In this document: positions 1 through 39,797 of the stretch, piece by piece
Numbering within the stretch: position 1 is the stretch's first letter
How the letters are laid out: each line of letters starts with the position of its first letter
Assembly (NCBI GenBank): GCA_046261635.1
Contig: JBHEOL010000172.1
Coordinates: 1 to 44,850 of the forward strand
From: Thermoanaerobaculia bacterium
GTDB taxonomy: Bacteria; Acidobacteriota; Thermoanaerobaculia; Gp7-AA8
Length of the DNA stretch: 44,850 nucleotides
Reading direction: 5' to 3'
Translations under genes and position numbers: made by a program
Notes under the pieces: model-generated
Told to the model about the DNA's origin: nothing
Databases searched by the model: none
The model's input: only the letters and a program-made list of their open reading frames with translations

Positions 1-984
1 GTTCGCCGGGCAAGGATTCTCGAGGCGGCGCGAGATATCGCCGCACGCGGTCTGACGGCCGTTCATGACGCAGGGGTGGATCAGGACACGATTCAGCTGA
101 TGAGGGAGCTGATCGATGCGCACCAACTCCCCATCCGCGTCTATGCGATGCTCTCCGACGATTCGGAACTGCTCGCTTACTGGTTCGGGCGCGGACCGCT
201 CATCGACTATGGGGACCATCTCACTGTTCGCTCGGTGAAACTGTACGCGGACGGTGCGCTGGGAAGCCGGGGGGCCGCGCTTCTGGCCCCGTATTCAGAC
301 GATCCAACGAACTCGGGACTGATGATCGCTTCGACCGAGCACATGACGAACCGGTCGCGGGCGGCCAGTGCGGCCGGGTTTCAGGTCGGTACGCATGCGA
401 TCGGCGATCGGGCCGTACGCAATGTGATCGACGCTTACGAGGCCGCGGCCATCGGGCCGGATCAGCGGTTCCGGATCGAGCACCTTCAGGTGGTCGCTCC
501 GGAGGATTTCTCACGTCTCTCCACCCTCGGAATCATCTCGGCGATGCAGCCGACCCACGCGACGTCGGACATGCCGTGGGCCGAGGATCGCCTCGGAGCC
601 GACCGCGTCCGCGGCGCTTATGCCTGGCGCACGGTTCTGGACGCCGGCAGCAGGCTCGCCCTCGGCTCCGATTTCCCCGTCGAACAGGTCGATCCGTTTC
701 TCGGAATCTATGCGGCGGTGACCCGGCAGGACCTCGAAGGATCCCCCGCAGGCGGATGGTTCGCCGACCAGCGGCTGACTCTCGAGGAGGCGATCCGCGG
801 ATTCACTCTCGATGCTGCGTTCGCGGCATTCGAGGAGGATCGCCGCGGCAGCATCGAGGTCGGGAAGTGGGCGGATCTCACGATCGTCGAGCCCGAGCCG
901 CGCGAAGGTGCCGCGAGACAGTTGCCTGAGACTCGGGTGCGCTACACGATCGTGAATGGACGCATCGTTCACCGGACCGAATGA
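1..984 (+). CDS. Amidohydrolase-family protein (YtcJ/amidohydrolase_3-like), 5' end outside the window
   Basis: Frame 1 is open from base 1 (VRRARILEAARDIAARGLTAVHDAGVDQ...). Metal-dependent amidohydrolase-like motifs are present (VKLYADGALGSRGA, GTHAIGDRA, RIEHLQV, GSDFPVE). The C-terminus is typical (KWADLTIV...VNGRIV). Confidence 0.8.
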   Translation, partial: VRRARILEAARDIAARGLTAVHDAGVDQDTIQLMRELIDAHQLPIRVYAMLSDDSELLAYWFGRGPLIDYGDHLTVRSVKLYADGALGSRGAALLAPYSDDPTNSGLMIASTEHMTNRSRAASAAGFQVGTHAIGDRAVRNVIDAYEAAAIGPDQRFRIEHLQVVAPEDFSRLSTLGIISAMQPTHATSDMPWAEDRLGADRVRGAYAWRTVLDAGSRLALGSDFPVEQVDPFLGIYAAVTRQDLEGSPAGGWFADQRLTLEEAIRGFTLDAAFAAFEEDRRGSIEVGKWADLTIVEPEPREGAARQLPETRVRYTIVNGRIVHRTE

Positions 985-1072: not shown

Positions 1073-1879
1073 TCAGCGGCCGAAACCGGGATGAAGCGCC
1101 GTTCCAGGACATCCTTCGACGCATACCATGCAGTTCGTGCAGCCGTCGAACCTCTTTATCTGACGTGGATCGAGCCCCCATGGACATCCCGCATGGCAGG
1201 CCGCGGGCGTTTCGTGAAGGCACCGCTCCACATCGTAGCGGATCAAAAGGGTCTTTCGGCTGCGGACCAGGTTCGCGAAGGTGCCGACCGGGCAAAGCGC
1301 CCGGCACCAGAGCCGCCGAGGCCCGACGAGCTCGAAGATCAGAAGCAGAAGCAGCAGTCCGCCGGTCGTCAGCGACAGGATCCGGAGATAGAGAATCTCG
1401 GCCGGAAGGGTCGTGATCAGGCGTGGAGCCGAGAGAATCGCGACGATCGGGATCCCCGAGAGGGCACCCAGGGCGAAGAGCACCCCGAGCAGAGTCGCCC
1501 TGGGCGCGCGCAGCTTGACCCACGGGCGACCGTGCCACGGTCGTGGACGAAGCTTCTGCTTCACCTTGTCGATCATTTCGGACAGCAACCCCCACGGGCA
1601 GACCCAGGAGCAGAACACGGGGCCGGCGACGAGCGCCATCACCACGATGGGGAGAAGGCCGACCAGAAGCGAAAGGACCAGCAGACGCCCGGCGAGGGCC
1701 GCGGAGAGCGCACCGGCCGGCTCGATGAGATCGATCGGGCCGATCCGGAGAGCCGCGAGCGTTCCGACGACCTGATGGTGCTCCGCCCGGTTCAAGAGTG
1801 GAATCGCGATGTAGAGGATCACGATCGAGATCTGCGCCAATCGGCGCCAGCGATTCCAGGAGACCTGGCGGGCCATCAC
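1073..1879 (-). CDS. napH: NapH-type membrane quinol dehydrogenase iron-sulfur subunit
   Basis: Multiple TM helices. Two CxxCP motifs (CSWVCPWG, CRALCPVG) and C-terminal Cys clusters (CLHETPAACHAGCPWG, CTNCMVCVEGCP). 4-nt start/stop overlap with napG. Confidence 0.8.
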   Translation of the reverse strand: MMARQVSWNRWRRLAQISIVILYIAIPLLNRAEHHQVVGTLAALRIGPIDLIEPAGALSAALAGRLLVLSLLVGLLPIVVMALVAGPVFCSWVCPWGLLSEMIDKVKQKLRPRPWHGRPWVKLRAPRATLLGVLFALGALSGIPIVAILSAPRLITTLPAEILYLRILSLTTGGLLLLLLIFELVGPRRLWCRALCPVGTFANLVRSRKTLLIRYDVERCLHETPAACHAGCPWGLDPRQIKRFDGCTNCMVCVEGCPGTALHPGFGR

Positions 1880-2385
1880 GCGATCTTTCCGGCTGGTCTG
1901 ATCACGATCGCGGGTCGCGAGGCGGGGCAGACCCGCTCACAGATTCCGCACCCGACGCATTGGTCGGTTACGTAGGGCTTGAGCTCGCCATTCTGGTAGA
2001 TCGCCTCGCCCTGCAGAGGACATTCGTCGACACACGTGCGGCAGAGAATCCCCTGGAAGGCATAGCAGGTCGACTCGTCGATGACGGCGATGCCCATGCG
2101 GACCGCCCGCTTGTCGGTGAGCGTGGGATCGAGCGCTCCCGACGGACATACCGGCGGGCACTGCATGCAGAGATAGCAGGGAATCTCCCTCGCGACCGCG
2201 TAGGGGGTCCCCATGTCTTTCTTATCCGGTCCCGCGGGTTTGAGCGTTCCGTAGGGACAGACTTCGATACAGCGGTTGCAGCGGATGCAGAGCGCCGTGA
2301 ACTGGTGCTCGGGCTTTGCTCCGGGCGGGCGCAGGGGCGCCGGACCGAGAAAATCGCGAAGCCACCCGAAGCGGGACCTAGTCAT
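1876..2385 (-). CDS. napG: NapG-type periplasmic poly-ferredoxin (4x 4Fe-4S)
   Basis: Four Cys clusters (CIRCNRCIEVCP, CYLCMQCPPVCP, CRTCVDECP, CVGCGICERVCP). Lies between napD and napH with 4-nt overlaps on both sides. Confidence 0.8.
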   Translation of the reverse strand: MTRSRFGWLRDFLGPAPLRPPGAKPEHQFTALCIRCNRCIEVCPYGTLKPAGPDKKDMGTPYAVAREIPCYLCMQCPPVCPSGALDPTLTDKRAVRMGIAVIDESTCYAFQGILCRTCVDECPLQGEAIYQNGELKPYVTDQCVGCGICERVCPASRPAIVIRPAGKIA

Positions 2386-2618
2386 TCCTCGTCGTCTCCG
2401 ACGAAGGTCGGGAACACGCCGACGATCGCTTCTTCCGAGGCGAGGAGCTCTTCGGCCAGCCCTTCGAGCGCCTCGCCGGTCTCTCCAGTCCAGACGGCGG
2501 CGATCCTCCGGTCTCCGTCGCCCCCCTTCAGTTGCAGCCCTTCAACACGTGCCAGCCGTGCAGCGACCGCGGGCTCCGAACCAGGCAGTGTTTCGATGAT
2601 GACTCCGGCGACGATCAT
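2382..2618 (-). CDS. napD: NapD-like Tat-proofreading chaperone for NapA
   Basis: 78 aa. The N-terminus (IVAGVIIETLPGSEPAVAARLARVEGL) is typical of NapD. Position is immediately after napA. Confidence 0.7.
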   Translation of the reverse strand: MIVAGVIIETLPGSEPAVAARLARVEGLQLKGGDGDRRIAAVWTGETGEALEGLAEELLASEEAIVGVFPTFVGDDEE

Positions 2619-2654
2619 GATGTCCTTTCTAATGCCGGGAGATCCCCGGCCGGA

Positions 2655-2685
2655 GTGGCCCGCGCCCCAGCGGAGCGCGGGCCAC
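2655..2685 (-). other. Perfect 11-bp-stem hairpin in the napA-napD spacer
   Basis: GTGGCCCGCGC-(9 nt)-GCGCGGGCCAC. No U-tract follows on the coding (minus) strand. Probably an intra-operon RNA structure. Confidence 0.4.
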
Positions 2686-2694
2686 CAGGTGAAC

Positions 2695-4956
2695 TCAGAC
2701 TTTCGTTACCTTCACCGCGCAGATCTTGAACTCGGGCTGCTTGGATCCGGGGTCGACGGCGTCGATCGTCATGATGTTGCACATGTGATCGGCGTCGTGC
2801 ATGTGGATGTACACGAGTCCCTTCGAGGAGGAGTCCGCAATCTTTGCGCGGAACACCTCGGACCCGCGCCGCGAGGAGACCCGGACCCTGTCGCCGGTCT
2901 TCACGCCCAGCTTCTTCGCATCGGCAGGGTTGATCTCGGCCATCGACTCATAGTTCGCGTGAACGAGCTCCTTGCAGTTCCTCGTCATCGTGGAGGTATG
3001 CCAGTGCTCGATGTTTCTCCCGGTCGTGTAATAGAACGGGTACTCGGCGTCGGGGACCTCCTCCGGCGGCCTCTGAGGACGCAGCCAGACGACCGCCTTA
3101 TTGTCGGGCCGGCCGTAGAACTGGATCCTGTGCGGCCAGCTCGCCGAAACGAGGGGATCTTCTCCTTTGACGTAGCGCAGAGTGGTTCCCGGATGCCCTT
3201 CGGTCGGCAGCGGCCAGATCAGACCGGGCTCCTTGCGCAACCGCTCGCGGGTCATCCCGCTGAAATCGTACGCGGTGCCCTTGGCGAGGGTCAGGATCTC
3301 CGTCCAGATCTCGCTCGTGTTCCTGAACGGGAGCAGTTTGCCGTGCCCGAGGCGCTTCGCCAGATCGCAAAGAATGGCGAAGTCAGGCCGCGCTTCGCCC
3401 GGAGGCGGCGTTGCCTGCTCCATCAGCTGATACCGGCGCTCGGCGCAGCCGTAGACTCCTTCCTTCTCGACCCAGAGAGCTGCCGGAAGAACGACATCTG
3501 CGAGCTCCGTGGTCCGGGTGGGGTGGTAGCTGTCGGCGACAACGACGAACGAGTCGTCCTTCTGCATCGCCTTCCGATAACGGTTCACATTCGGCAGCGA
3601 CTGTCCCGGATTCGTGCACATGATGTAGAGGCACTTGATCTTTCCCTCTTCCAGTGCGCGGAACATGTCGATGGTGGCCAGGCCAGGCTTCGGCGCCAGC
3701 GTGCCCGCCGGGATCTTCCAGAGCGCCTCTATCTCGGCGCGGTGTTTTTCATTGGCAACCAGCCGGCCGTAGGGAAGAAGGTGGGATAAGGCTCCACCGT
3801 CCCGCACGCCACCGCAGGCGTTCGGCTGTCCCGTGAGCGAGAAGGGCGTGTTGCCCGGAGTCCCGATCTTCCCGGTGATGAGATGGAGGTTGTGAACGAG
3901 GTTGTTCGCCCACACGCCCTTGGTGCGCTGATTCAGCCCCATGCACCACATCGACATGGAGGCTTTCCCCTTCGCACCAAACCACCGGGCGGCGGTGATG
4001 ATGTCCTCGGGCTTGCAATCGGCGATGGCTGCTGCTTTCTCCGGCGTGTAGTCCTGGAGCATTGCGACGTAGTCGGCCCAGCTCTTGTTCGCCTCGGCAC
4101 CCTCTCCGAAGATCAGATGCGTCTTGATGAACTCCTCGTCGATCATCTTCTCGTTCACCAGGACCCAGGCCATCGCGTTGAGAATCGCGAGATCGGTTCC
4201 GGGCTTGAATGAGAGATGAAGATCTGCGATGCGAGCGGTCGGGGTCTTCCGAGGGTCGATGACGATGACCTTCGTCCCGGGCTTCGAGTTCTTCCGCTTC
4301 ACGATTCGCTGGAAAAGGATCGGATGTGCTTCCGCCGCATTCGACCCGATGAGAAAGATGACATCGGCGTGATCGATGTCCTCGTAGGTTCCCATCGGCT
4401 CGTCTTTGCCGAAGGTCGTCATGTAGCCGCCGACGGCAGAAGCCATGCAGAGCCGCGGGTTTCCTTCGACGTTGTTGGTGCGGATTCCGGCCTTGAAGAG
4501 CTTGTTCGCGCAGTACGTCTCCTCGGTCAGCCCCTGGCCGGAGCCGTAAAACCCGACCGAATCGGGGCCGTACTGATCGATCGACCTCTTGAATTTCGAA
4601 GCGACCAGAGTCATCGCTTCGTCCCAGCTCGCCTTGACGAGCTTGCCATTCTTGCGGATGAGGGGGTGGGTCAGGCGATCTTTACCGGTGAGAATCTGGG
4701 GAAGAAGGAAACCCTTCAGGCAGAGGAAGCCCTGGTTGTGGTTCTCCTTGTCCCCCTTGACGGCGAAGACCTTGCCGTCCTTGACTCCCGCATAGAGCCC
4801 GCACCCGGTGCCGCAGTAGCGGCACACGGTCTTGACCCATTTTTCGCCGCCGGGCTGAGCGGCAAAGGCCTCGGCGGTGAAACGAAAATCGCCGAGAGCA
4901 GCGAGTGCGCTCGCTGCCGCCGCAGACTCGAGAAGTGTGCGTCTGGTGATGGTCAT
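2695..4956 (-). CDS. napA: Periplasmic nitrate reductase catalytic subunit NapA (Mo-bisMGD, 4Fe-4S)
   Basis: Twin-arginine signal (MTITRRTLLESAAAASALAALG). N-terminal 4Fe-4S motif CRYCGTGCG...C. Molybdopterin oxidoreductase length and motifs. Embedded in a napMADGH context. Confidence 0.9.
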   Translation of the reverse strand: MTITRRTLLESAAAASALAALGDFRFTAEAFAAQPGGEKWVKTVCRYCGTGCGLYAGVKDGKVFAVKGDKENHNQGFLCLKGFLLPQILTGKDRLTHPLIRKNGKLVKASWDEAMTLVASKFKRSIDQYGPDSVGFYGSGQGLTEETYCANKLFKAGIRTNNVEGNPRLCMASAVGGYMTTFGKDEPMGTYEDIDHADVIFLIGSNAAEAHPILFQRIVKRKNSKPGTKVIVIDPRKTPTARIADLHLSFKPGTDLAILNAMAWVLVNEKMIDEEFIKTHLIFGEGAEANKSWADYVAMLQDYTPEKAAAIADCKPEDIITAARWFGAKGKASMSMWCMGLNQRTKGVWANNLVHNLHLITGKIGTPGNTPFSLTGQPNACGGVRDGGALSHLLPYGRLVANEKHRAEIEALWKIPAGTLAPKPGLATIDMFRALEEGKIKCLYIMCTNPGQSLPNVNRYRKAMQKDDSFVVVADSYHPTRTTELADVVLPAALWVEKEGVYGCAERRYQLMEQATPPPGEARPDFAILCDLAKRLGHGKLLPFRNTSEIWTEILTLAKGTAYDFSGMTRERLRKEPGLIWPLPTEGHPGTTLRYVKGEDPLVSASWPHRIQFYGRPDNKAVVWLRPQRPPEEVPDAEYPFYYTTGRNIEHWHTSTMTRNCKELVHANYESMAEINPADAKKLGVKTGDRVRVSSRRGSEVFRAKIADSSSKGLVYIHMHDADHMCNIMTIDAVDPGSKQPEFKICAVKVTKV

Positions 4957-5360
4957 TGGTCACCTCCTGCCGGAGTCCAGTGAGGATTCAGAGCATGCGC
5001 CGAGTGGCACGAGAAGCAGCTCTTCTCCTTCATCTTCGGATGCTCCATGGTCGCGACCTGCTGCGGGTGGCATCCGAGGCACCGCTCCGGTGTTGGCTCG
5101 ATGGTGAAATCTTCGCCCGTGGAGCCGTGGCAGACGAAGCAGAGAACGTTGTTCATTCCATGCGGGCCGGCGTACCAGGCCTGCACGACTTCCGGGTGGA
5201 TGTCGGCGTGGCAGTCGGCGCACGCGATCGTCTCGTCGACTTCCGGATGCTCGACTTTCGCAGGCGCCTTGGTGTCTGCCAACTCCGCCCAGGAGGCCGA
5301 AACACCGAGCCCCCAGAGAAGCGCAGCCGCCATGAGCAGCACGAACAGTTTCGATTTCAT
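4953..5360 (-). CDS. napM: Periplasmic tetraheme cytochrome c (NapM-like)
   Basis: Sec signal peptide (MKSKLFVLLMAAALLWGLGVSASWA). Four CxxCH motifs (CADCH, CFVCH, CLGCH, CFSCH). 4-nt ATGA overlap with napA. Confidence 0.7.
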   Translation of the reverse strand: MKSKLFVLLMAAALLWGLGVSASWAELADTKAPAKVEHPEVDETIACADCHADIHPEVVQAWYAGPHGMNNVLCFVCHGSTGEDFTIEPTPERCLGCHPQQVATMEHPKMKEKSCFSCHSAHALNPHWTPAGGDQ

Positions 5361-5381
5361 AGCTTCCTCGTTTCTTCGTGT

Positions 5382-5417
5382 GGGAGGGCACCCTCCCGGC
5401 GGAGGGCACCCTCCCGG
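5382..5417. repeat. Tandem duplication of an 18-nt self-complementary unit (two adjacent hairpins)
   Basis: GGGAGGGCACCCTCCCGG followed by CGGAGGGCACCCTCCCGG, 17/18 identical. Each unit folds as GGAGGG-CA-CCCTCC. Lies in the 65-nt gap between the OM barrel gene and napM. Confidence 0.6.
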
Positions 5418-5425
5418 TGTCGAGA

Positions 5426-6997
5426 TCAGCCGCCGATCTTCAGTCCGCCGTAGTTGAACCGGAGGGTGGTCCGGAGCTCCCAGGCTGAGTCGTCATACAG
5501 CGCAGTTCCATTGATGAGGTACCCGGCAGCATCTCCGGGGAAGAAGACTCCGCCCCGGAGGGTCCAGATCAGGTTCTTCATCACGTTCCAGTCGAGCATG
5601 AAATCGACCTCGGAACCGAGATCGTCGGAGCTTGCCGCCCCGAACTCTCCCGGATCGATCGCTCCGTTGCCGTTGACGTCACTCCACGGACGCAGCGGTT
5701 CGGTCGCCTTCATGACCGTTCCCGAGAGGAACAGCTTCCACTGCGGGCGGATGGGGAAGGAGGCGTTGAGCTGCAGGAGCGTCGTGTTCTCGAACTCGCG
5801 ATAGCCGCGGGAGCCGGGCGATCCGAGGCCCTGGGGCGTGATCCCTTCCTCATCGGGCATGATCGAGTCTTCCCAGACCTCGTTCACGTAGAAGAAGCCG
5901 TTCGTGCGGATCTTGTTGATGTTGCCGTCGCCCGACATCGGGTCGTCGTCGCCGGATCCCATGCCGAAGACTGCTCCAACCGTCGCCTTGCCGACCGGCA
6001 TCTTCGCGTCGAGGTAGAGGTTGTATCCGGTCAGATCGCCGTTGTTGACGTCGAGGAGCTGATTGGGACCCGAGTTGACGTTCGGGACATCGTCGCTGCC
6101 GGTCAGGTAGTCGACTTCACCCTTGAGAGCGACTTTGCCGGCCTTTCCGGCGAACGCGAATCCGAGCGCGGTGACCTGGCTCAGGTTCGGGCGGAAGCGG
6201 GCGTTGAAGTACTGCAGCTCGTTCGGAGCGTAGGTGCGGCCGTCAATGTCCCCGCGGTCTCTGTAATAGGCAATGAAGGGATTGAGATTGAAGTTGCCGC
6301 GCTTGCCGGCGAAGTTGACGTAGAACAGATCAGAATCCTCTCCGCTGACTCCACCCGGGGCGACGTCGTCGGTGAGCGAGTCCGCGCCCTCGTACATCTT
6401 CGTCCAGTCGAAGGTCGTGACCCAGTTCCCGTACTTGCGCGAAACCTGAACTCCATCCCCGTCCTGGTCGAGGACGAGAAGGTTACCGAGCTTGTTCCCC
6501 ATGCGGCCGACGCGGAAGGTCGTCCCTGCGATCTGCTCGGGAGAGAACTCGACGTATGCCCAGTCGACGTGCATCAGGAAGTTCGTTTCCTTGTTGTTGA
6601 ACAGATTCGAGAAGCCGGGACGGTCATTGTCCCGCTGCTCGTTGTCGAGGCCGAAGATGGACTGGGCAATGTCGATCCGCACGACGCCTTTCAGGTTCGG
6701 CCCATAGCTGAGCTCGGGTTGAATCCTGAAGAGCTGGATCATGTACGCGTCGTGATCGGTGACGAGTCCGGGCGCGTCCTTGCCGAGAAAGAAGTTGTTC
6801 TGTGTATAGCCGTTGAACTCGTAGAAGCCGCCGAGGGTGAGCGCCAGCTTCGGATCGGGCGCGGGCGTCTTAGGCTGTCCCTCGGGGGCAAGCGGGGGGG
6901 TCTGGGGTGGCGGCGGGGTCGTCTGGGCGAACCCGGCGGCCGCGATCATCAGCGCGATCGCTGCGATCGCGATCCAACGGGGAAACTGCGTGTTCAT
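5426..6997 (-). CDS. Putative outer-membrane beta-barrel (porin-like) protein
   Basis: Start reassigned to ATG 6997, which has a GGAGAGAGG SD just upstream. Signal peptide MNTQFPRWIAIAAIALMIAAAGFAQ, then a Pro-rich linker. The remaining ~480 aa are rich in G/Y/N/D/F with alternating beta-strand-like patterns. No family recognised. Confidence 0.6.
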   Translation of the reverse strand: MNTQFPRWIAIAAIALMIAAAGFAQTTPPPPQTPPLAPEGQPKTPAPDPKLALTLGGFYEFNGYTQNNFFLGKDAPGLVTDHDAYMIQLFRIQPELSYGPNLKGVVRIDIAQSIFGLDNEQRDNDRPGFSNLFNNKETNFLMHVDWAYVEFSPEQIAGTTFRVGRMGNKLGNLLVLDQDGDGVQVSRKYGNWVTTFDWTKMYEGADSLTDDVAPGGVSGEDSDLFYVNFAGKRGNFNLNPFIAYYRDRGDIDGRTYAPNELQYFNARFRPNLSQVTALGFAFAGKAGKVALKGEVDYLTGSDDVPNVNSGPNQLLDVNNGDLTGYNLYLDAKMPVGKATVGAVFGMGSGDDDPMSGDGNINKIRTNGFFYVNEVWEDSIMPDEEGITPQGLGSPGSRGYREFENTTLLQLNASFPIRPQWKLFLSGTVMKATEPLRPWSDVNGNGAIDPGEFGAASSDDLGSEVDFMLDWNVMKNLIWTLRGGVFFPGDAAGYLINGTALYDDSAWELRTTLRFNYGGLKIGG

Positions 6998-7167
6998 TCC
7001 TCTCTCCTTTTCCTTGAAGCCCCTTCTGCATGGCTGGTCAGGTTGACGCTGGGACCGAGGGTCCGGGCGTCGCATGAACCCATCAATCATGGGGTCGACG
7101 TGATCATCACGAGGTGGCGCCAGCCACTCGGCAACGGGGACTGATCGCACCCCGGTCAGGGTCAAGC

Positions 7168-8535
7168 TCACTGCTGGTACCTCTGCTCGTAGAAGTCGAG
7201 CATCTTCTGAATTTCCTCCTTGCTCAGCCCGTGCTTCCAGGCGTGCTCGGGCATCTGGAGTGCTGCCGTGGTGACGCCCGGCATGGCATGCTCGGCCTGG
7301 GGCAGGAACTTGTTGTAGAAGTGCTTCGAAACTTCATAGAACCCGTGCCACTGGGTGAAGTCGGGTCCCATCATCGACGCCCCCATCCGAGCGCGGCGTC
7401 CTTCGTGGTGCCACAGTTCGTAGAACGTCCATTCGAGCTCTTCGTCGAACGGAGTCGGCGTGATCTTCCCCTCGGCCCTGAGGGTCTCCATGATGTCGTT
7501 GGCCGGGATCGCGAACTTGTCGTTGTAGAGCCCGACCGCGTCATCGAACATCTGGAAGTAGTTGGTGGTCCAGGTCTCGCCGTGGCATTCGAGGCAGACC
7601 TTGGTCATCCTGTCGCGGCGAATCTCCCACTCTTCGAGCCGCTTGGAGACGACCGGACGCAGAGTCCATGAGATGCGGTCGCCGATGTCGTGCGTGATTT
7701 TCTGGGTCGGCGTGGCGCTCATGTGGCACGTGGCACACGTGGGTGCGGCGGTGTAGTTCTTTCCCACGATCCACTCGTCGGCATCGAGATTCATCGCCTC
7801 GCGATGAGCGACGAACATGATCCCGTGCTTCGATTCCTCGAAGATCTCGATCTGCGGGTGATCCGGTCCCATGTGGCACCGGCCGCAGGTTCGCGGCTCA
7901 CGCGCCTGCGCCTTCGAGAAGTGATGACGCGTATGACAGGCGGTACAGGTGCCGATGGATCCGTCCGGGTTGACTCGGCCGATTCCGGTGTTCGGCCAGC
8001 TCCCCGGAAGAGGGACGCCTTTGTCGCTCACCTGGACGACCGAACCGTGACACTGTTTGCAGCCGAGGTTCGCGCCAGGCACGCCTTCGATGACCTCGCC
8101 GAGAATGTTGTCGAGGGAACCGATGAACTCAGCGGCCTTCGCATGGTGGGAGTCGGTGAACTGGTCGAACTGCTCCTTATGGCAGCTTTCGCAGTCCCGC
8201 GGGCTGGGGACCATTGCGACCTGATATCCCTCGTGAACCCAGAGGTCCTTGTCGCCCTCCTTCGCCTGGTGGCAGGACATGCAGCCGATTCCCTTGGCGG
8301 CATGGACCGACTTCTCCCACTGCCGTGAAAAGTCGACTGCCGCATGCTTTTCATCGTGACAGTTGATGCAGGCGCGCGTGACTTCGTCGGCGTGATACCG
8401 CGCCGTCTTCTCCGGCTTCGCGCGCTCTTTCTCGATCCAGCCGACGGCGATGGCCGACGCCGTGAAGGCCACGGCGAAGAGCGCTACGAGTACTTTCTTG
8501 AAATGCAAGCTCATGCTCCCTCCTGAAGAGCTCAT
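7168..8535 (-). CDS. Octaheme cytochrome c of the hydroxylamine oxidoreductase (HAO) family
   Basis: Eight CxxCH motifs (CINCH, CMSCH, CESCH, CKQCH, CTACH, CGRCH, CATCH, CLECH). The block CTACHTRHHFS...CGRCHMGPDH...SKHG resembles the heme-5/6 region of Nitrosomonas HAO as I recall it. N-terminal hydrophobic anchor/signal. 4-nt overlap with the cyt b gene. Confidence 0.85.
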   Translation of the reverse strand: MSSSGGSMSLHFKKVLVALFAVAFTASAIAVGWIEKERAKPEKTARYHADEVTRACINCHDEKHAAVDFSRQWEKSVHAAKGIGCMSCHQAKEGDKDLWVHEGYQVAMVPSPRDCESCHKEQFDQFTDSHHAKAAEFIGSLDNILGEVIEGVPGANLGCKQCHGSVVQVSDKGVPLPGSWPNTGIGRVNPDGSIGTCTACHTRHHFSKAQAREPRTCGRCHMGPDHPQIEIFEESKHGIMFVAHREAMNLDADEWIVGKNYTAAPTCATCHMSATPTQKITHDIGDRISWTLRPVVSKRLEEWEIRRDRMTKVCLECHGETWTTNYFQMFDDAVGLYNDKFAIPANDIMETLRAEGKITPTPFDEELEWTFYELWHHEGRRARMGASMMGPDFTQWHGFYEVSKHFYNKFLPQAEHAMPGVTTAALQMPEHAWKHGLSKEEIQKMLDFYEQRYQQ

Positions 8536-9638
8536 GACAGGGCTTCCCAGATCAGAAAAACGATCACCGTGGCGAGGAAAGCGCCCCCCACCACCGGTGC
8601 GATCTCGAGTTCGGGTTTACGGCGGCGGATTGCGCCGTCGATGAAAGGCCAGAAAAGGATTCCAAGGCCGGCGACGATGATCCCGGTCATGCCGAGCCAC
8701 AGCGGTGCGATCTTCAGCCACCTGAAGGCGGGGTAGAAGTACCACTCGGGCTTGACGTGGAGGGGGGTCACCTGCGGATTCGCCGGCTCACCGAGATGAG
8801 CCGGGAAAATCATCGCCAGCATCGTCACGGCGGTGACCAGGACCAGGCCGACGATCAGCTCCGTCGTCACATGATCAGGAAAGAACGCGAAGTAGCGGTT
8901 GGGATCGAACCTCTTCTTCCCCTCCCGATCCTCCTCCACGGTGATCGGCCGTTCCTGCACCTCTTTCGGGGCGTCGAGCTCCATGACCCCGTGGATCCTG
9001 AGGAGGAAGACGTGGAGGCCGATCAGAACCAGCGCCAGGACCGGCATCGCTCCGATATGCAGCACGTAAAGCCGCGTCAGCGTCGTCGGGGTGACCGTTG
9101 CGCCACCCCGCAGCAGCGCCGCGGTCCAGGGACCGACGAGCGGAAGCTGCCCCGCCACGTTCGTTCCGACCGTCGCCGCCCAATAGGAAAGCTGATCGTA
9201 AACGAGCGCGTAGCCCGTGAACGCGAACCCGAGCGTCACTCCGAGAAGCGCGACGCCCACCATCCAATTCAGCTCGCGCGGCTTCCGGTACGCGCCGGTG
9301 AAAAAGACCCGGATCGCGTGAAGGGCGACCGCCACGATCATCAGGTTCGCCGTCCAGTGATGCACCGAGCGAATCCACCAGCCGAACGGCACCGCCTCCT
9401 GGATCCGCTGCACCGATTGCCAGGCTCTTTCAGGGGAGGCTTCGTAATAGAACGTCAGCAGAATCCCCGTGGCGATCTGGATACCGAGAAGAATCAGGGG
9501 GGTGCCACCCAGCGCGTACCACCAGTTCTTCATGTGGTGCGGGATCGGTTCTTTCGACAGCTCCTCGAATACCTCGATGTCGACCGGCACTCGTTCCTTG
9601 ATGAACCGCTGCCACGAATTGACTCGTGTCGTCGTCAT
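8532..9638 (-). CDS. Cytochrome b (b6-like N-domain fused to subunit-IV-like C-domain)
   Basis: Strong by-eye similarity to cytochrome b6 (FGWWIRSVHHW, RKPRELNW, TLTRLY). His pairs are separated by 13 intervening residues (helix B) and 14 (helix D). KPEWYF (PEWY) motif in the C-terminal half. No CxxCH. Confidence 0.9.
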   Translation of the reverse strand: MTTTRVNSWQRFIKERVPVDIEVFEELSKEPIPHHMKNWWYALGGTPLILLGIQIATGILLTFYYEASPERAWQSVQRIQEAVPFGWWIRSVHHWTANLMIVAVALHAIRVFFTGAYRKPRELNWMVGVALLGVTLGFAFTGYALVYDQLSYWAATVGTNVAGQLPLVGPWTAALLRGGATVTPTTLTRLYVLHIGAMPVLALVLIGLHVFLLRIHGVMELDAPKEVQERPITVEEDREGKKRFDPNRYFAFFPDHVTTELIVGLVLVTAVTMLAMIFPAHLGEPANPQVTPLHVKPEWYFYPAFRWLKIAPLWLGMTGIIVAGLGILFWPFIDGAIRRRKPELEIAPVVGGAFLATVIVFLIWEALS

Positions 9639-9639
9639 C

Positions 9640-10089
9640 TCACGCCTCCGCCACCGGCACGGTCACGAAGACCTTGTCCTGGTCGAGTCGCACCGTGAAG
9701 GAAGCGAGCGGCGATGGAGGCGGACCGGCCGTCACCTTTCCGGCCGTGTCGAATCGTCCGTCGTGGCAGGGACAGAGGAAGTTCTTCTCTCGCGAATCCC
9801 AGCCGACCTGGCAACCGAGATGCGTGCACACCGAGGAGAAGACCCTCACGTCCCGCTCCCCGAGCCGGACCGCCAGCAGGTCGTTGCCCAGTACCGAACG
9901 GAAGCTGCGGCTCGCGCCGACCGGAAGGTCTCCGAGCTGAGTCAGCAGGATTTCTTCGGCGCTCCCGCGCCGCGCCGGAACGAGGAACCGGCGAAAGTAA
10001 TCAGCAGCAAGAACAAATCCGGGGATGAGCGCCAGGCCCATCACCAGGTTCGCAAGAAAATCGCGTCGTCGTAAGCGGGACCAGTTCAT
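9640..10089 (-). CDS. Rieske [2Fe-2S] protein
   Basis: CTHLGC...CPCHDGRF Rieske boxes. Start reassigned to ATG 10089, with a GGAGGAG SD 3 nt upstream and a Tat-like RRRDFL motif. The stop is 1 nt before the cyt b start. Confidence 0.85.
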   Translation of the reverse strand: MNWSRLRRRDFLANLVMGLALIPGFVLAADYFRRFLVPARRGSAEEILLTQLGDLPVGASRSFRSVLGNDLLAVRLGERDVRVFSSVCTHLGCQVGWDSREKNFLCPCHDGRFDTAGKVTAGPPPSPLASFTVRLDQDKVFVTVPVAEA

Positions 10090-10112
10090 GACTCCTCCGG
10101 GTTGATCCCTGG

Positions 10113-10128
10113 AGCGAGGCAGGTGCCG
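10113..10128 (-). promoter_or_regulatory. Candidate sigma-54 (-24/-12) promoter for the Rieske/cyt b/octaheme operon
   Basis: The minus strand reads CGGCACCTGCCTCGCT. The GG and GC dinucleotides have exactly the consensus spacing of TGGCAC-N5-TTGCW. It would leave only a ~13-nt leader before ATG 10089. An NtrC-type activator is encoded immediately upstream. Confidence 0.3.
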
Positions 10129-10282
10129 CGGAGCCCGTTTCAATCCAATCCACTGATTCCGTTCTACTTGCGGACTTCAAAGGCCTCGTGACCGGACGGG
10201 TCATTCGGCAGCGGATTTCCGTGTCACGTCTCACGCAAATGAGCCGAAACGACTGACGGATCTAGGCTTAGTGGGCTCGGTC

Positions 10283-10306
10283 GAATCGGCAGTCGACTGC
10301 CGATTC
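10283..10306. promoter_or_regulatory. Perfect 24-bp palindrome, candidate enhancer (UAS) or operator
   Basis: GAATCGGCAGTC|GACTGCCGATTC. Lies ~105 nt downstream of the response-regulator stop and ~170 bp upstream of the candidate -24/-12 element. No U-tract follows on either strand. Confidence 0.4.
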
Positions 10307-10409
10307 CGCTCTCCGGAGGAAGTTCATTGCGAACCGTGGGGAGGTGACGACCGGCGCCGGAAGCGAAACGTCGGTGGGGAGAGAACGCGGGAACAGAGGC
10401 TCTTTCAGC

Positions 10410-11789
10410 TCAGCCGGCCACAGTGGGGGACCCGCGTTCCCTCTCGCGGGGTCCCCGGACGAGCCCGTGCTTGCGAAGAAGGTTGTAGAGCTGACGGGGG
10501 GAGATGGCGCTCTTCCTGGCGACCTCCGACAGCCTTCCACCCCACGCCTGCATCGCCTGCTCGAGATACTTGCGCTCGAACTCGTCGACCACGTGCTGCT
10601 TTTCCACCTGGAATGGGGCGAGGAGGAGCTGGCCCGAGTCGCGCGGGCAGCGCAGGCGACCGCCCTGACTGAGGATGACGAGTCGCTCGAGCGTGTTCTC
10701 GAGCTCTCTCACGTTCCCTGGCCAGCGTTGCGCGGAGAGCCAGGCGATCAGGTCGGAATCGATGTCGGTGATTTCCTTCTCGTGGCGCTGGGCGAGACGA
10801 GGAAGGATGAAGTGAACCAGGTCGGGGATGTCTTCGCTGCGTTCCCGCAGCGGCGGGATATGGATCGGCACGACGTTGAGCCGGTAGAACAGATCCGCGC
10901 GGAACTCGCCCGCCTCGACCTCGGCATGCAGATCGCGGTGAGTCGCCGCCACGATGCGAAGGTCGACCGCCTGGCCCGCATCGGACCCTAGGGGTGTGAC
11001 CTCTCCATCTTCGAGCAGTCGAAGGAACTTCGGCTGCAGGCTCTGCGGAAGATCGCCGATCTCGTCGAGAAAGAGCGTTCCGCCGTGCGCGGTGAGAGCG
11101 CGCCCCTGCCGCATGCGCTCGGCGCCCGTGAACGCGCCGCGGGTATGGCCGAACATCTCGGCCTCGAGCAGCGTCTCCGGAATGGCAGCGCAGTTGAGCG
11201 CGACGAATTTCTTCTGAGAGCGTCGGGAAGCGGCGTGGATCGCCCGGGCCACGACCTCTTTCCCGGTCCCGGTCTCGCCGGTGATGAGCACGGTCACTTC
11301 GGTGGGGGCGACGTCCGCAATCAGCTCCCTCATCCTCTCGATGGCGGAAGATCGGCCGACCAGCTGGCCGGCGGCCGTGGAGAGCCGCGTGTCCCGCAGA
11401 TCACGCCTCAGCCTTCGCAGCTCCACCGCCCTGCCGAGGACGAGTCCCAGCTCTTCGTAGTCGAGCGGCTTCGGCAGATACGTGAACGCACCGATCTTCA
11501 TCGCCTCGACCGCCAGCCTCTCGTCTCCATGCCCCGTGATCATCACCACCGGAACATCGGGCGCCCGGCGGTGGAGGTAGCGAAGCACATCCATGCCAGA
11601 CATGCCCGGAAGAAGATAGTCGACGACGATCACGTCCGGCTGGATTTCCGGGAGCATCGATAGCGCGATGCTTCCCTCGCTCGCTGCATGGACGACGTAA
11701 CCCTCGCGCTCGAGCGCCACGGACATGACGCGGACCGCGACGGGTTCGTCTTCCACGACGAGGACGACCGGAGGACGAGGACGCTTCAT
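10410..11789 (-). CDS. Sigma-54-dependent response regulator (NtrC/Fis family)
   Basis: Receiver domain (VLVVEDEP...VIVVDYLLPGMSG). AAA+ Walker A (GETGTGKE) and GAFTGA loop. C-terminal HTH. 4-nt overlap with the kinase gene. Confidence 0.9.
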   Translation of the reverse strand: MKRPRPPVVLVVEDEPVAVRVMSVALEREGYVVHAASEGSIALSMLPEIQPDVIVVDYLLPGMSGMDVLRYLHRRAPDVPVVMITGHGDERLAVEAMKIGAFTYLPKPLDYEELGLVLGRAVELRRLRRDLRDTRLSTAAGQLVGRSSAIERMRELIADVAPTEVTVLITGETGTGKEVVARAIHAASRRSQKKFVALNCAAIPETLLEAEMFGHTRGAFTGAERMRQGRALTAHGGTLFLDEIGDLPQSLQPKFLRLLEDGEVTPLGSDAGQAVDLRIVAATHRDLHAEVEAGEFRADLFYRLNVVPIHIPPLRERSEDIPDLVHFILPRLAQRHEKEITDIDSDLIAWLSAQRWPGNVRELENTLERLVILSQGGRLRCPRDSGQLLLAPFQVEKQHVVDEFERKYLEQAMQAWGGRLSEVARKSAISPRQLYNLLRKHGLVRGPRERERGSPTVAG

Positions 11790-12856
11790 CGCGAAACGAG
11801 ACGCGCAACAACGCGCGCGCCTCCCTCCGGAGGATTCGAGACCTCGAGATCTCCACCATGAAGGCGGCAGACCTCGCGCATGATCACCAGCCCCAGTCCC
11901 GTCCCATCGGGACGCGTCGTGACGAACGGCTCGAACAGATGGTCGAACACCGCCTGCGGGAAACCGGGACCGTCGTCACGAATCTCGATCTCGAGCCACT
12001 CGCCTTCGGGTTTCGTATCCATGGAGACCTCGAGCGTCACCCGGCCGCGAGGCCCCGCGGCCCACACGGCATTCTCGACGCCGTTGTTGACGAGACGCCG
12101 GAAGAGCTCCGGATCGAGATTGACCTCGGGAAGCGACGGCGGCACGGTCAGCCGGACACCGGAACCGCTCGGGCGCAAGGTCTCGCGCAGCAGCTTCCCG
12201 ACATCGGTTTTTTGTGGATTCGGACGGAGTGGCCGGGTGACCTCGCGTAGATGGTCGATGAGCCCGCCGAGACGTCCCAGCTGATTCGAAACGATCTCGA
12301 GCATCTCGCGCGAGGCCGGGTCGGCCGACACCCGGGATGTGAGGTTGTGGACCGCCCCCGCGATGATGTTCAGCGGGTTCTTGACCTCGTGAGCCAGCTT
12401 GGCGGCCATCCTGCCCAGACCCGAGAGCTTCTCCTGATGAACGAGTTGCTCTTCGAGGACCTTCTGCCGCCGAACGTCCTGAGCCATCCAGACGACGCCG
12501 CGAAACTCCCCCTCCGGGCTCCCGATGCGGGCGTACTGAACCCGCCATCCATTGGCGCGCTCGATGACCAGCGGGTGCTGCCGTGCCTCGTCCGTCGAAC
12601 GGAAACGGTCGAATACTTTGCCGAGAGCCTTCCTCGACCGCTCCGGGTGGCACTCGGCGACCGAGCGACCGACCCTCTGCCCGACCCCTCGAATCCGGTC
12701 CGCAAGAGGATTGCAGAATACGATGCGCTCCTGCTCGTCGGTGATGATCAAGCCGGCCGGGAGGCTGCGCAGAACGTCCTCGTAGAAGGCGAGCTTCCGC
12801 TCAGCCTCGGCGAGGCGCTCATCGACACGGATTCCCGTGGACTTGACGGCGGTCAC
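11786..12856 (-). CDS. Cytoplasmic PAS-domain sensor histidine kinase
   Basis: No TM segments. PAS domain (LPAGLIITDEQERIVFCNPLA...). H-box HEVKNPLN. HATPase_c N and G boxes (NNGVENA, DDGPGF, GTGLGL). Confidence 0.85.
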   Translation of the reverse strand: MTAVKSTGIRVDERLAEAERKLAFYEDVLRSLPAGLIITDEQERIVFCNPLADRIRGVGQRVGRSVAECHPERSRKALGKVFDRFRSTDEARQHPLVIERANGWRVQYARIGSPEGEFRGVVWMAQDVRRQKVLEEQLVHQEKLSGLGRMAAKLAHEVKNPLNIIAGAVHNLTSRVSADPASREMLEIVSNQLGRLGGLIDHLREVTRPLRPNPQKTDVGKLLRETLRPSGSGVRLTVPPSLPEVNLDPELFRRLVNNGVENAVWAAGPRGRVTLEVSMDTKPEGEWLEIEIRDDGPGFPQAVFDHLFEPFVTTRPDGTGLGLVIMREVCRLHGGDLEVSNPPEGGARVVARLVSR

Positions 12857-12934
12857 GCTCCTGAACGTAGCAGCGAACGTCGGGGAAGCGCATAGCCAAC
12901 ATCACACGCCGGAAGGATGTTCGTCACCCTCGGC

Positions 12935-13264
12935 TCAGCGCTTCGAGCCCGAAGGCTTCCCCTCCAGGTCGCGGATCCAGGTCCAGACCGCAACGGCCGA
13001 CGGCAGGCCGACCACGCTGGCCGAGAGAGCGACGATCTGCTCCATCTCTTCCAGGGTCGCCCCGGCGTCGCGTGCCTTGCGGACGCTCGAGTGCACGCCC
13101 CCTTCCCGCATGGCGCCGATCGACAGGGCGAGCTTCATCAGCCGGACGTTTTTTTCGTCGAGCGGCCCCTGGCTGCCCGCCTCGCCCAGCAGGTCCCAGG
13201 CCTGGCGCACCTTAGGAAACTGCTTGCTGAACTCCTGGAAAGTCTTCGGGGGTTTGCTCTTCAT
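12935..13264 (-). CDS. Carboxymuconolactone decarboxylase (AhpD-like) family protein
   Basis: Start reassigned to ATG 13264 (AAGGAG SD). CMD-like core (LDEKNVRLMKLALSIGA...ARDAGATLEEMEQIVALSA). No CxxC motif. Confidence 0.6.
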   Translation of the reverse strand: MKSKPPKTFQEFSKQFPKVRQAWDLLGEAGSQGPLDEKNVRLMKLALSIGAMREGGVHSSVRKARDAGATLEEMEQIVALSASVVGLPSAVAVWTWIRDLEGKPSGSKR

Positions 13265-13451
13265 CGAAACTCCTTTGCCGCGAATTGGCCCTTGAAGTGA
13301 CCTGGAGAGCGTTCTACCACAATCGCGGACCCCGTTCGGTGATCGCTCCACCGACATCTCGAGGAGCGCAGCGAAGCGCGCCCGATGCTCGGGTTTCGGC
13401 GTCATTCTGAGCGAGTAACCGCCCTATGGCTGCTCGGACGAGGAGGGGTCA

Positions 13452-13913
13452 TCAGGGATCTTCGACCAGAATCTCGGTTTTCAGCGACCTGGCGATGAAG
13501 CACTCCTCATGGGCCGCTGCGTGAAGCGAGCGGAGCTCCTCGGGCGTGGGCCCGGAGCCGCCGACAAACTCGATCTTCGGCCGCAACGTGATTCGAGTGA
13601 ACGCGAGTTTTCCTTCCGGACCGGGTTCCATCACGCCGACGGCGTGGTCGAGATAACACTCGACCACGAATCCCCGCCGAGCAGCGAGGGAAAGGAACCA
13701 GAGCATGTGGCAGCTCGACGCGGAAGCCACGAGGGCCTCCTCCGGATCGACGGCCGCTTCGGACGAGAGGGGAACCGGAACCACCCGGGGAGAGGAGGAT
13801 GCAGGCACGACCACGCCGCCATCGAAGCGCCACTCGTGCGCGCGGGCGTAGCGATTGTCCGTGAACTTCGCCCCGTTTCTCCGCCAGGAGATCATCGCTT
13901 CGTACCGATGCAC
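13452..13913 (-). CDS. OsmC/Ohr-family protein
   Basis: Start reassigned to GTG 13913 (AAGGAGG SD 5 nt upstream). OsmC-like pattern (HRYEAMISW..., PEEALVASASSCHMLWFL, HEECFIARSL). Confidence 0.7.
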   Translation of the reverse strand: MHRYEAMISWRRNGAKFTDNRYARAHEWRFDGGVVVPASSSPRVVPVPLSSEAAVDPEEALVASASSCHMLWFLSLAARRGFVVECYLDHAVGVMEPGPEGKLAFTRITLRPKIEFVGGSGPTPEELRSLHAAAHEECFIARSLKTEILVEDP

Positions 13914-39583: not shown

Positions 39584-39797
39584 CAGTTAACGCACCACCC
39601 GTTCGCGTGACCGGCTCAACGTGCATTTCGGTTACTCCGCCTCGATCTCGGGGACCCCGGCACGCACACGCACGTTCACCCCGCGAGGGGCTCCACTGGA
39701 TTGGTTGGCGGAATCAATGATACCTCGGTGCGAAGGATTGCAGACCCCTTGTTTGTGGCGCATCGACGCCAATTTTCACCCGACGTAACGAACCGGT

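Follow-up and report, generated by a model that had tools for sequence, protein, structure and literature searches.

A nine-gene operon from Thermoanaerobaculia (Acidobacteriota) joins the genes of a periplasmic nitrate reductase (Nap) to that of an HAO-family octaheme cytochrome c (OCC), which is itself preceded by a Rieske protein and a cytochrome b. The operon lies on one complete contig of a metagenome-assembled genome (MAG), which is 44,850 nt long, GC-rich (about 63%) and here called the window, and its genes run head to tail on the minus strand between positions 1073 and 10089 in the order Rieske, cytochrome b, OCC, outer-membrane protein (OMP), NapM, NapA, NapD, NapG and NapH. We tentatively read it as a respiratory operon of the Caldithrix type, in which nitrate would be reduced in the periplasm and nitrite would then be reduced by a non-cross-linked OCC with ammonium as the product, and we put the probability of this reading at about 0.45. 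A sequence-only reading of the same DNA had described a self-contained path from nitrate to reduced nitrogen with a Q-cycle-type input of electrons, an interpretation that our analysis partly supports. Its gene labels agree with our Pfam and NCBIfam assignments, and all nine genes were confirmed with the content, the positions and the single strand that it gave.

In the mechanism that we favour, menaquinol would give up its electrons at the Qo site of a Rieske/cytochrome b complex without cytochrome c1 or cytochrome f, and the membrane-anchored OCC would stand in for cytochrome c1 and be reduced by the Rieske centre. Electrons would then pass along the OCC heme chain to its own five-coordinate heme 4, where nitrite would be reduced, and also to the soluble NapM and on to monomeric NapA, where nitrate would be reduced, with an AlgE-like barrel letting nitrate and nitrite in. 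Quinol oxidation by Rieske/cytochrome b instead of a NapC/NrfH-type cytochrome would make this segment electrogenic. Ammonium is the product that we consider most likely, which would amount to NrfA-independent nitrate ammonification; we favour it because of the physiology of Caldithrix, the existence of ammonifiers with nap-hao clusters, and the nearness of the OCC to IhOCC, the octaheme of Ignicoccus hospitalis.

The octaheme cytochrome, its Rieske/cytochrome b partner and Nap

The OCC has eight CXXCH motifs and no CXXCK, and it matches Pfam Multi-haem_cyto (PF13447) with 98.5 bits; by HAO family we mean here PF13447, which is clade 1 of Soares et al. 2022. Among proteins of solved structure its closest relative is IhOCC (4QO5), with E values of 9e-43 by sequence and 1e-63 by profile. 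An AlphaFold 2 (AF2) model of the OCC, with a mean predicted local distance difference test (pLDDT) of 85.5 and a predicted template-modelling (pTM) score of 0.78, has helices at residues 320-354, 366-388 and 394-417, and Foldseek places it closest to IhOCC (TM-score 0.69), followed by HAOr of Kuenenia (0.59) and by HOX, HAO and HDH (~0.54), with E values from 1e-16 to 2e-7. Sequence and profile searches rank the relatives in the same order. Eight CXXCH in HAO order and a fold with three long C-terminal helices are the marks of HAO-family membership, and the OCC has both, together with a predicted N-terminal helix at residues 10-38. The family to which it belongs is large, with at least 7,986 matches. 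We also considered whether the OCC might be an NrfA or ONR and rejected the idea: besides the missing CXXCK, the match to Cytochrom_C552 reaches 15.5 bits, below its cut-off of 24.1, and Foldseek gives non-significant E values of at least 0.15 with TM-scores of about 0.2.

At the putative active site, D225-H226 of the OCC aligns with D267-H268 of NeHAO, the distal pair of heme 4, and Arg293 aligns with NeHAO Tyr334; both are invariant in 62 homologues. The GPDHP stretch of the active site is identical in HAOr and the OCC family. Retention of the distal Asp-His pair in this alignment indicates that the OCC is an enzyme, more than a wire. In HAO and HOX the cross-linking tyrosine sits ~108 residues past the heme-8 motif, and the span of the OCC that matches it by spacing, residues 408-448, contains no tyrosine at all. 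Two tyrosines just beyond, Y449 and Y453, are invariant in the close subfamily and lie within an extra C-terminal helix (FYxxRY), a tail that is missing in two nap-linked relatives (L056 and L060 of the comparative set described below). Alignments of the OCC to solved HAO, HOX and HDH end near residue 360-370, short of the cross-link region, and our call on the tyrosine is made from spacing, secondary structure and family conservation, not from residue-level superposition. With that small doubt left, we conclude that the OCC is non-cross-linked and, because it is so, a reductive enzyme of the HAO family. It is probably both a nitrite (N-oxide) reductase and the c-subunit of the Rieske/cytochrome b complex.

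The Rieske gene starts with an ATG at 10089 behind GGAGGAG, exactly the end coordinate of the sequence-only reading, and its product carries an RRRDFL Tat signal, an N-terminal hydrophobic stretch at residues 10-31 and the motifs CTHLGC and CPCHDG. Cytochrome b has PEWY at position 297 and histidine ligands at 93/94, 107, 194 and 209, and with it the module has these hallmarks of the bc1/b6f type: the Rieske CxHxGC and CxCH motifs, the four histidine ligands of the b hemes and the PEWY motif of the Qo site. The NCBIfam matches of cytochrome b are to ExtP and b6-like models, all below their cut-offs; ExtP is the best and covers only the b6-like half. A WWYALGG stands in place of the Cys-containing b6 motif, which we take to mean that cytochrome b has no heme ci. 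The Rieske box reads CPCHDGRF, without the Ser and Tyr of CPCHGSxY that, to judge from bc1 mutants, raise the potential in bc1 and b6f complexes. A low-potential, menaquinol-type Rieske centre is predicted on this basis.

No gene for a cytochrome c1, a cytochrome f or a diheme c subunit was found with Pfam; the OCC stands in that position, its gene overlapping that of cytochrome b by 4 nt. Because of this translational coupling, the intact Qo motif and the b-heme ligands, an electrogenic quinol-oxidising step is plausible. The Q-cycle-type coupling proposed by the sequence-only reading thus stands as plausible, whereas the novelty that it claimed for the Rieske/cytochrome b partner does not, since the same design and the same hypothesis were published for Caldithrix abyssi in 2017 and anammox bacteria provide a precedent.

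NapA aligns over its full length (716 residues, 938 bits, E 3e-281) with the NapA of Desulfovibrio desulfuricans (2JIO), and both the CRYCGTGC motif for the [4Fe-4S] cluster and the molybdenum ligand C170-M171 (C140-M141 in Desulfovibrio) are conserved. NapA is also the best NCBIfam match, at 712 bits; this is below the cut-off of 904 of a model that spans 830 positions, against the 753 aa of the protein. All features that define the type are present, and by sequence the protein is a genuine monomeric periplasmic nitrate reductase. NapG has no Tat signal and no hydrophobic N-terminus, and its open reading frame (ORF) cannot be extended upstream; the prediction is that it stays in the cytoplasm or leaves it by hitchhiking on a different, exported protein. 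Because NapG has no twin-arginine signal, NapGH is left without an obvious route to periplasmic NapA. NapB is absent from the cluster, and Pfam and NCBIfam scans found no NapC/NirT-family gene in the window. Since NapC and NapB are absent and NapG is signal-less, the chain from Rieske/cytochrome b through the OCC to NapM is the only evident periplasmic route to NapA, and Nap may draw on the Rieske/cytochrome b module no less than the octaheme does.

The smaller Nap genes are recognised partly by their surroundings. A NapM-like gene occupies the equivalent position in Thermoanaerobaculum aquaticum, Calditrichota and Desulfomonilaceae loci. The NapD-like gene is 55-63% identical and syntenic in relatives, and its Desulfomonilaceae homologue passes the NapD cut-off.

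Conservation of the octaheme-Nap association

We compared 65 loci with relatives of the OCC, drawn from GTDB species representatives (L numbers denote single loci), and identified neighbours by tblastn with the window proteins. Peptide patterns of the window OCC were the seeds of the scan for loci, which biases the sample towards relatives, and several contigs are incomplete; the counts that follow are lower bounds. NapA lies in the flank of 33 loci, cytochrome b immediately upstream of the OCC in 24, and 16 loci have both. Because the co-location of OCC and Nap recurs in 33 of the 65 loci and in three gene orders, it is more than chance, and the synteny is kept in Acidobacteriota, Calditrichota, Planctomycetota, Gemmatimonadota and Desulfomonilaceae. 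The functional link between Nap and the HAO-like octaheme that the sequence-only reading had drawn from a single locus is borne out by this recurrence across several phyla.

The complete arrangement, from kinase to NapH, is found in eight Thermoanaerobaculia/Holophagales MAGs. A second pattern, with Rieske, cytochrome b and a 540-aa form of the OCC followed by NapA 18-520 nt further on, occurs in Planctomycetota, Gemmatimonadota and Acidobacteria Mor1, and the NapA beside the OCC in Mor1 passes the NCBIfam equivalog cut-off for NapA. In a third, comprising ~20 Desulfomonilaceae loci, there is no Rieske/cytochrome b; the OCC is followed by a tetraheme cytochrome, DsrO-like, DsrP/NrfD-like and HEAT-repeat proteins, NapD in some, and then NapM, NapA, NapG and NapH, and the DsrP model passes its cut-off. 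(The lineage is represented by L021-L046 and L065, for example L022 10001-19776 and L034 11382-11984; we also observed in it a divergent sensor kinase with a Tll0287-like periplasmic domain that has one CXXCH.) In a fourth, found in Omnitrophota and others, Rieske, cytochrome b and OCC occur without Nap and with an Rrf2-family regulator upstream. Five loci belonging to different phyla (L009-L011, L013 and L049) have such a regulator ahead of the module, and these proteins score best as IscR/SUF-type, not NsrR.

Two loci have further respiratory genes on the 3' side of the OCC. In L060 a NapC/NirT-family cytochrome follows it (11371-11910), the sole such partner in the set, and the OCC of this locus has GPDSP for GPDHP. 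In L013 a qNor-type NorB gene lies directly 3' of the OCC (11438-13708), an arrangement seen at this single locus. Across these arrangements the OCC has the behaviour of a terminal module, joined to varied quinol dehydrogenases and very often linked to Nap.

Outside this set, the type strain T. aquaticum MP-01 (L066, JMFG01000009.1) has an identical 11-gene arrangement, from the kinase to napMADGH. A Calditrichota MAG (L067) has the order OMP, NapM, NapA, NapD, NapH, NapG, Rieske, cytochrome b, OCC, in which two blocks are permuted relative to the window; its OMP is 47% and its OCC 36% identical (E 4e-88) to those of the window. When the Calditrichota OCC was used to search for homologues, none of the 120 matches listed bore the name C. 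abyssi.

Operon layout, regulation and the outer-membrane channel

The Rieske and cytochrome b genes are 1 nt apart, and 4-nt overlaps like that between cytochrome b and OCC also join napM to napA, napD to napG and napG to napH. The remaining gaps measure 170, 65 and 76 nt, the largest directly after the OCC gene. A terminator scan found no terminator-like site inside these gaps, and a sigma-70 promoter scan gave nothing useful within the operon.

Upstream of the Rieske gene are genes for a response regulator and a histidine kinase, which overlap each other by 4 nt (Table 1); the sequence-only reading had not remarked on the regulation. The best NCBIfam match of the regulator is ntrC, below its cut-off; the gene is syntenic in relatives, and kinase and regulator stand as a pair upstream of the cluster in L001-L004, L006, L007, L061 and T. 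aquaticum (L066). The intervening 320-nt leader (10090-10409) contains a perfect 22-nt palindrome, AATCGGCAGTCGACTGCCGATT. Its CGGCA-N6-TGCCG form recurs 5' of the Rieske gene in 7 of the 7 relatives checked, in some of them in two copies, and is probably an upstream activator site. The exact sigma-54 pattern TGGC-N8-TGC has no match upstream of the operon. Because the window has cGGCAC...TcGCT, its -24/-12 element is recognised only through relatives, most of which among those examined (L003, L004, L006, L007 and L002) have the canonical TGGCAC-N5-TTGC at the equivalent place; from this correspondence we infer that the element acts as a sigma-54 promoter. Palindrome and promoter element both fit the neighbouring NtrC-type regulator and PAS kinase (10410-12856). 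The kinase is a probable regulator of the operon, and the nine genes probably form one sigma-54-dependent operon under the adjacent two-component system.

Table 1. Genes and regulatory elements of the operon and its upstream region, from 5' to 3' on the minus strand
Feature	Position	Strand	Basis
PAS sensor histidine kinase, cytoplasmic, 356 aa	11786..12856	-	Pfam PAS, HisKA, HATPase_c
NtrC-type sigma-54-dependent response regulator, 459 aa	10410..11789	-	Pfam Response_reg, Sigma54_activat, HTH_8
Perfect 22-nt palindrome	10284..10305	-	read directly in the leader
Sigma-54-type -24/-12 element, cGGCAC-N5-TcGCT	10113..10128	-	read directly; compared with relatives
Rieske [2Fe-2S] protein, 149 aa, Tat signal/anchor	9640..10089	-	Pfam Rieske; motifs
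Cytochrome b, 368 aa, fused b6 + subunit IV	8532..9638	-	Pfam Cytochrome_B, Cytochrom_B_C
HAO-family octaheme cytochrome c (OCC), 455 aa	7168..8535	-	8 CXXCH; PF13447
AlgE/OprD-like outer-membrane channel (OMP), 523 aa, signal peptide	5426..6997	-	AF2 model, Foldseek, NCBI call
NapM-like periplasmic tetraheme cytochrome c, 135 aa	4953..5360	-	4 CXXCH, signal peptide, c3/c7-type Pfam
Monomeric periplasmic nitrate reductase NapA, 753 aa	2695..4956	-	TRRTLL Tat signal; 2JIO match
NapD-like chaperone, 78 aa	2382..2618	-	weak Pfam NapD (20.7 bits, cut-off 28); synteny
NapG-like 4x[4Fe-4S] ferredoxin, 169 aa	1876..2385	-	best NCBIfam NapG, model positions 44-207
NapH-like membrane Fe-S protein, 268 aa	1073..1879	-	NCBIfam NapH/MauN, Pfam Fer4_5; four transmembrane-like segments

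The OMP matches the 523-aa NCBI call ABR517_06920 with 100% identity. Its true start is M59 of a longer ORF (5426-7171), at 6997 and followed by the signal peptide; the 58-codon extension overlaps the OCC stop. The AF2 model has 18 strands (pTM 0.75), and Foldseek gives AlgE (3RBH, E 6e-19) as the best match, followed by Occ/OprD porins, so that the OMP is, as modelled, a channel and not an MtrB-type sheath. The gene lies directly 5' of napM in the window, in T. aquaticum and in the Calditrichota MAG, and because it stays beside napM in Calditrichota we consider the barrel tied to Nap and not to the octaheme. A porin-cytochrome conduit of the MtrAB/Pcc kind, with a barrel of 20-26 strands, a decaheme and a surface cytochrome, was considered for it and rejected on the 18-strand AlgE-like fold and the napM-adjacent position in Calditrichota. 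The most conserved stretch of the OMP is a long acidic loop at residues 347-404 (5786-5959), GSGDDDP...EIWEDSIMPDEEG...YREFEN, where the confidence of AlphaFold is very low. It may be a constriction or plug within the pore, and an acidic loop is unexpected in a channel for nitrate and nitrite.

The other ~30 genes of the window are housekeeping genes by Pfam, among them lpxD-fabZ-lpxA, bamA, clp, dnaB and genes for GGDEF/EAL proteins. Pfam scans found no NrfA, NirS, NirK or NirB among them, in keeping with the sequence-only reading, and no multiheme gene in the window beyond the operon. This is one contig of a fragmented MAG and not a genome, and the pathway cannot be called self-contained on such a basis, as that reading had it. 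Rfam and tRNA scans of the whole window gave no matches, including none to a molybdenum cofactor riboswitch. Converging on napH is an Amidohydro_3 gene (1-984, plus strand) that is cut by the contig start and covers only profile positions 186-472, with a terminator-like hairpin between the two genes at 1018-1043. Neighbouring genes at 37808-41822 encode two large GGDEF-EAL proteins, of which one has a PAS domain, and a PilZ-domain protein is encoded at 33336-34013; these belong to cyclic-di-GMP signalling and have no evident link to the nap operon.

Alternative interpretations and known systems

Several observations weigh against a Caldithrix-type ammonifying operon. T. aquaticum MP-01, with its identical cluster, reportedly takes Fe(III) and Mn(IV) as electron acceptors but does not respire nitrate or nitrite. 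HAOr of Kuenenia forms NO (nitric oxide) with the milder donor ascorbate/phenazine ethosulfate (PES), and ammonium only when driven by the very strong reductant methyl viologen. Rieske centres deliver electrons at high potential, and that of the window, though probably lowered, is likely to be above the working potentials of ammonifying multiheme enzymes. At L013 the gene next to the OCC is a qNor. Other Thermoanaerobaculia carry narGHI and nrfAH, and the source genome is known from one contig. Finally, the likeness to C. abyssi rests on its published gene order and on the Calditrichota MAG, not on the sequences of C. abyssi itself.

The alternative that survives best, which we nevertheless consider unlikely, is that the Rieske/cytochrome b-wired OCC is a one-electron, NO-forming nitrite reductase in a denitrification chain leading from Nap through the OCC to Nor and Nos, where it would take over the step for which NirS or NirK is missing. 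Electrons at the level of a Rieske centre would suit a one-electron step at +350 mV better than NrfA-like chemistry, and NO-forming nitrite reductases canonically draw their electrons from a bc-type complex. Gene inventories fit such a chain, since those of T. aquaticum list a nap operon and nor homologues and neither nirS, nirK nor nrfHA, with Nos genes in Gp23 members. The second-best fold match, HAOr, makes NO from nitrite with a mild donor and shares the GPDHP stretch; an octaheme that co-migrates with the anammox Rieske/cytochrome b complex is proposed to form NO; and the authors of a Phycisphaerae survey have proposed an equivalent role, suggesting that HAO-like octahemes may replace NirS/NirK in genomes with nar and nor but no nir. 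The qNor of L013 and the Rrf2-family regulators, whose family includes NsrR, also point this way, although the former is a single case and the latter resemble IscR/SUF-type proteins more closely. Against NO as the product, C. abyssi yields ammonium with a like wiring, the closest solved relative is IhOCC and not HAOr, the OCC of Desulfomonilaceae is paired with a DsrO/DsrP-like (NrfCD-type) low-potential quinol module, and T. aquaticum grows on neither nitrate nor nitrite.

A broader form of this idea, that Rieske/cytochrome b-anchored, non-cross-linked OCCs constitute a widespread third class of respiratory, electrogenic, NO-forming nitrite reductases outside anammox bacteria, seems to us improbable. 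To our knowledge no Rieske/cytochrome b-HAO complex has been isolated outside those bacteria. If such a class were real, it would fill the place of the 'missing Nir' in Nor/Nos-carrying Thermoanaerobaculia, Phycisphaerae and others, and surveys based on nirS and nirK only would be misclassifying its carriers as truncated denitrifiers.

Another possibility, quite improbable in our view, is that the OCC serves chiefly as a cytochrome c1 equivalent that wires Rieske/cytochrome b to NapM and NapA, with an open heme that would do no more than detoxify nitrite, NO or hydroxylamine; the cluster would then serve nitrate-to-nitrite reduction or redox balancing and not growth-supporting respiration to reduced nitrogen. 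The missing c1 or f subunit and the overlap of the OCC gene with that of cytochrome b, the absence of NapC and NapB and the signal-less NapG are all as expected of such a wire. The growth result for T. aquaticum would find its explanation here, as would Deferribacter desulfuricans, which has napMADGH-hao and yet stops at nitrite, and the Rieske/cytochrome b-OCC modules that stand without Nap, beside an Rrf2 regulator, in Omnitrophota and other lineages. A selected catalytic site is indicated instead by the invariant Asp-His pocket and by Arg293, and members of the OCC family also occur with NapC/NirT or DsrOP-like partners, a pairing to be expected of a terminal reductase.

We consider it very improbable that barrel and multiheme cytochrome together carry electrons out of the cell to Fe(III)/Mn(IV), or that they serve to reduce another oxyanion, such as selenite or tellurite, in place of nitrogen oxides. 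T. aquaticum does reduce Fe(III) and Mn(IV), the best NCBIfam match of cytochrome b, ExtP, comes from a selenite/tellurite reduction operon, and an outer-membrane barrel does stand beside a multiheme cytochrome; but the barrel is AlgE/OprD-like with 18 strands and not an MtrB, it adjoins napM-napA away from the OCC in Calditrichota, there is no gene for an outer-surface cytochrome, NapA is a canonical nitrate reductase, and the ExtP match is below cut-off and confined to the b6-like half. We give almost no credence to an oxidative HAO or HDH that would feed electrons from hydroxylamine or hydrazine into the quinone pool: the fold, the Asp-His pair and the subfamily-invariant Y449 and Y453 are compatible with it, but there is no tyrosine at the cross-link-equivalent position, the FYxxRY tail is missing from L056 and L060, the closest relatives are reductive, hydrazine_HDH scores 77.6 against an NCBIfam cut-off of 900, Rieske/cytochrome b runs from quinol to cytochrome and not the reverse, and the gene has those of Nap as neighbours in an anaerobe.

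If the module works as we propose, ammonification (or denitrification) in Thermoanaerobaculia and several poorly studied phyla would escape the nrfA, onr, nirS and nirK markers, and more energy would be conserved per electron than in NapC/NrfH-wired systems. The published negative growth result for T. aquaticum MP-01, set against the gene content of a cultured strain with the identical cluster, is a contradiction that can be tested. For T. aquaticum, Eichorst et al. 2018 speak of no more than a 'napA operon', and we found no description of the Nap-Rieske/cytochrome b-octaheme design in Acidobacteriota in the literature searched.

Among known systems of solved structure, the octaheme is most like IhOCC (Igni_0955), which is described and listed as an octaheme nitrite reductase and is likewise non-cross-linked and membrane-associated, with HAO heme packing. 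IhOCC differs in that it is archaeal and only 24% identical, has Asp-Val for Asp-His and an insertion of ~100 residues, and has no C-terminal helix. On the Nap side the nearest counterpart is napCMADGH of D. desulfuricans ATCC 27774 (2NAP/2JIO), with monomeric NapA, NapM, NapD, NapGH and a signal-less NapG and without NapB; that organism has NapC, and NrfHA for nitrite, whereas in the window Rieske/cytochrome b-OCC replaces NapC. A menaquinol-oxidising, electrogenic Rieske/cytochrome b complex that feeds periplasmic reductases is also known from the Qcr systems of Campylobacterota, where Qcr-dependent Nap respiration is established (Campylobacter jejuni and Wolinella succinogenes). Those systems have a diheme c subunit and are encoded apart from nap, while in the window the c-subunit would be the catalytic octaheme and is encoded in the same operon.

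Octahemes linked to nap are known from Campylobacterota as εHao (Nautilia, Caminibacter, Campylobacter; Haase et al. 2017), in nitrate reducers that have no NrfA; these enzymes have no cross-linking tyrosine, and in vitro they reduce both nitrite and hydroxylamine. Their partner in the 'reverse-HURM' scheme is a NapC/NrfH-type tetraheme cytochrome, whereas that of the window OCC is Rieske/cytochrome b and no HaoC-like partner is present; our likening of the window OCC to εHao is by description, not by sequence. Deferribacter and Denitrovibrio (Deferribacteres), which ammonify without NrfA, have napMADGH-hao clusters.

The pairing of an HAO-like octaheme with a b6f-like Rieske/cytochrome b complex has its precedent in Kuenenia, where Kuste4574 co-migrates with the complex Kuste4569-4574, and the soluble HAOr (Kustc0458/7), which has no tyrosine cross-link, is reductive. 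The anammox complexes differ in having extra hexa-/octaheme and NAD(P) oxidoreductase subunits, Rieske potentials of +303 and +335 mV, a location in the anammoxosome, NO as the proposed product and no Nap, and structure-based identity to the window OCC is only ~19%.

The closest parallel overall is C. abyssi, which reduces nitrate to ammonium without NrfA and has, at Cabys_2564-2556, a cluster of napM-napA-napG...napH, Rieske, cytochrome b and an adjacent 'εHao', for which Kublanov et al. 2017 (PMC5317091) proposed that Rieske/cytochrome b donates electrons to NapM and/or εHao and generates proton-motive force. The window operon has all the marks of this type, with NapM, monomeric-type NapA, NapG, NapH, Rieske, cytochrome b and an adjacent octaheme, and neither cluster has NapB, NapC or NrfA. 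The two differ in order, the Rieske-cytochrome b-OCC block coming first in the window and last in C. abyssi; a Tat signal is reported for the NapG of C. abyssi, whereas that of the window has none; and the Calditrichota OCC has 535 aa, Gln for Arg293 and a different C-terminus. They differ also in physiology: the formation of ammonium is demonstrated for C. abyssi, while no respiration of nitrate is reported for T. aquaticum, the relative in culture on the acidobacterial side. The wiring of an HAO-like octaheme to Rieske/cytochrome b is thus already published, if biochemically still hypothetical, and the window is a further example of it; the idea being that of 2017, the main value of the acidobacterial operon is that it brings a cultured strain in which it can be tested directly.

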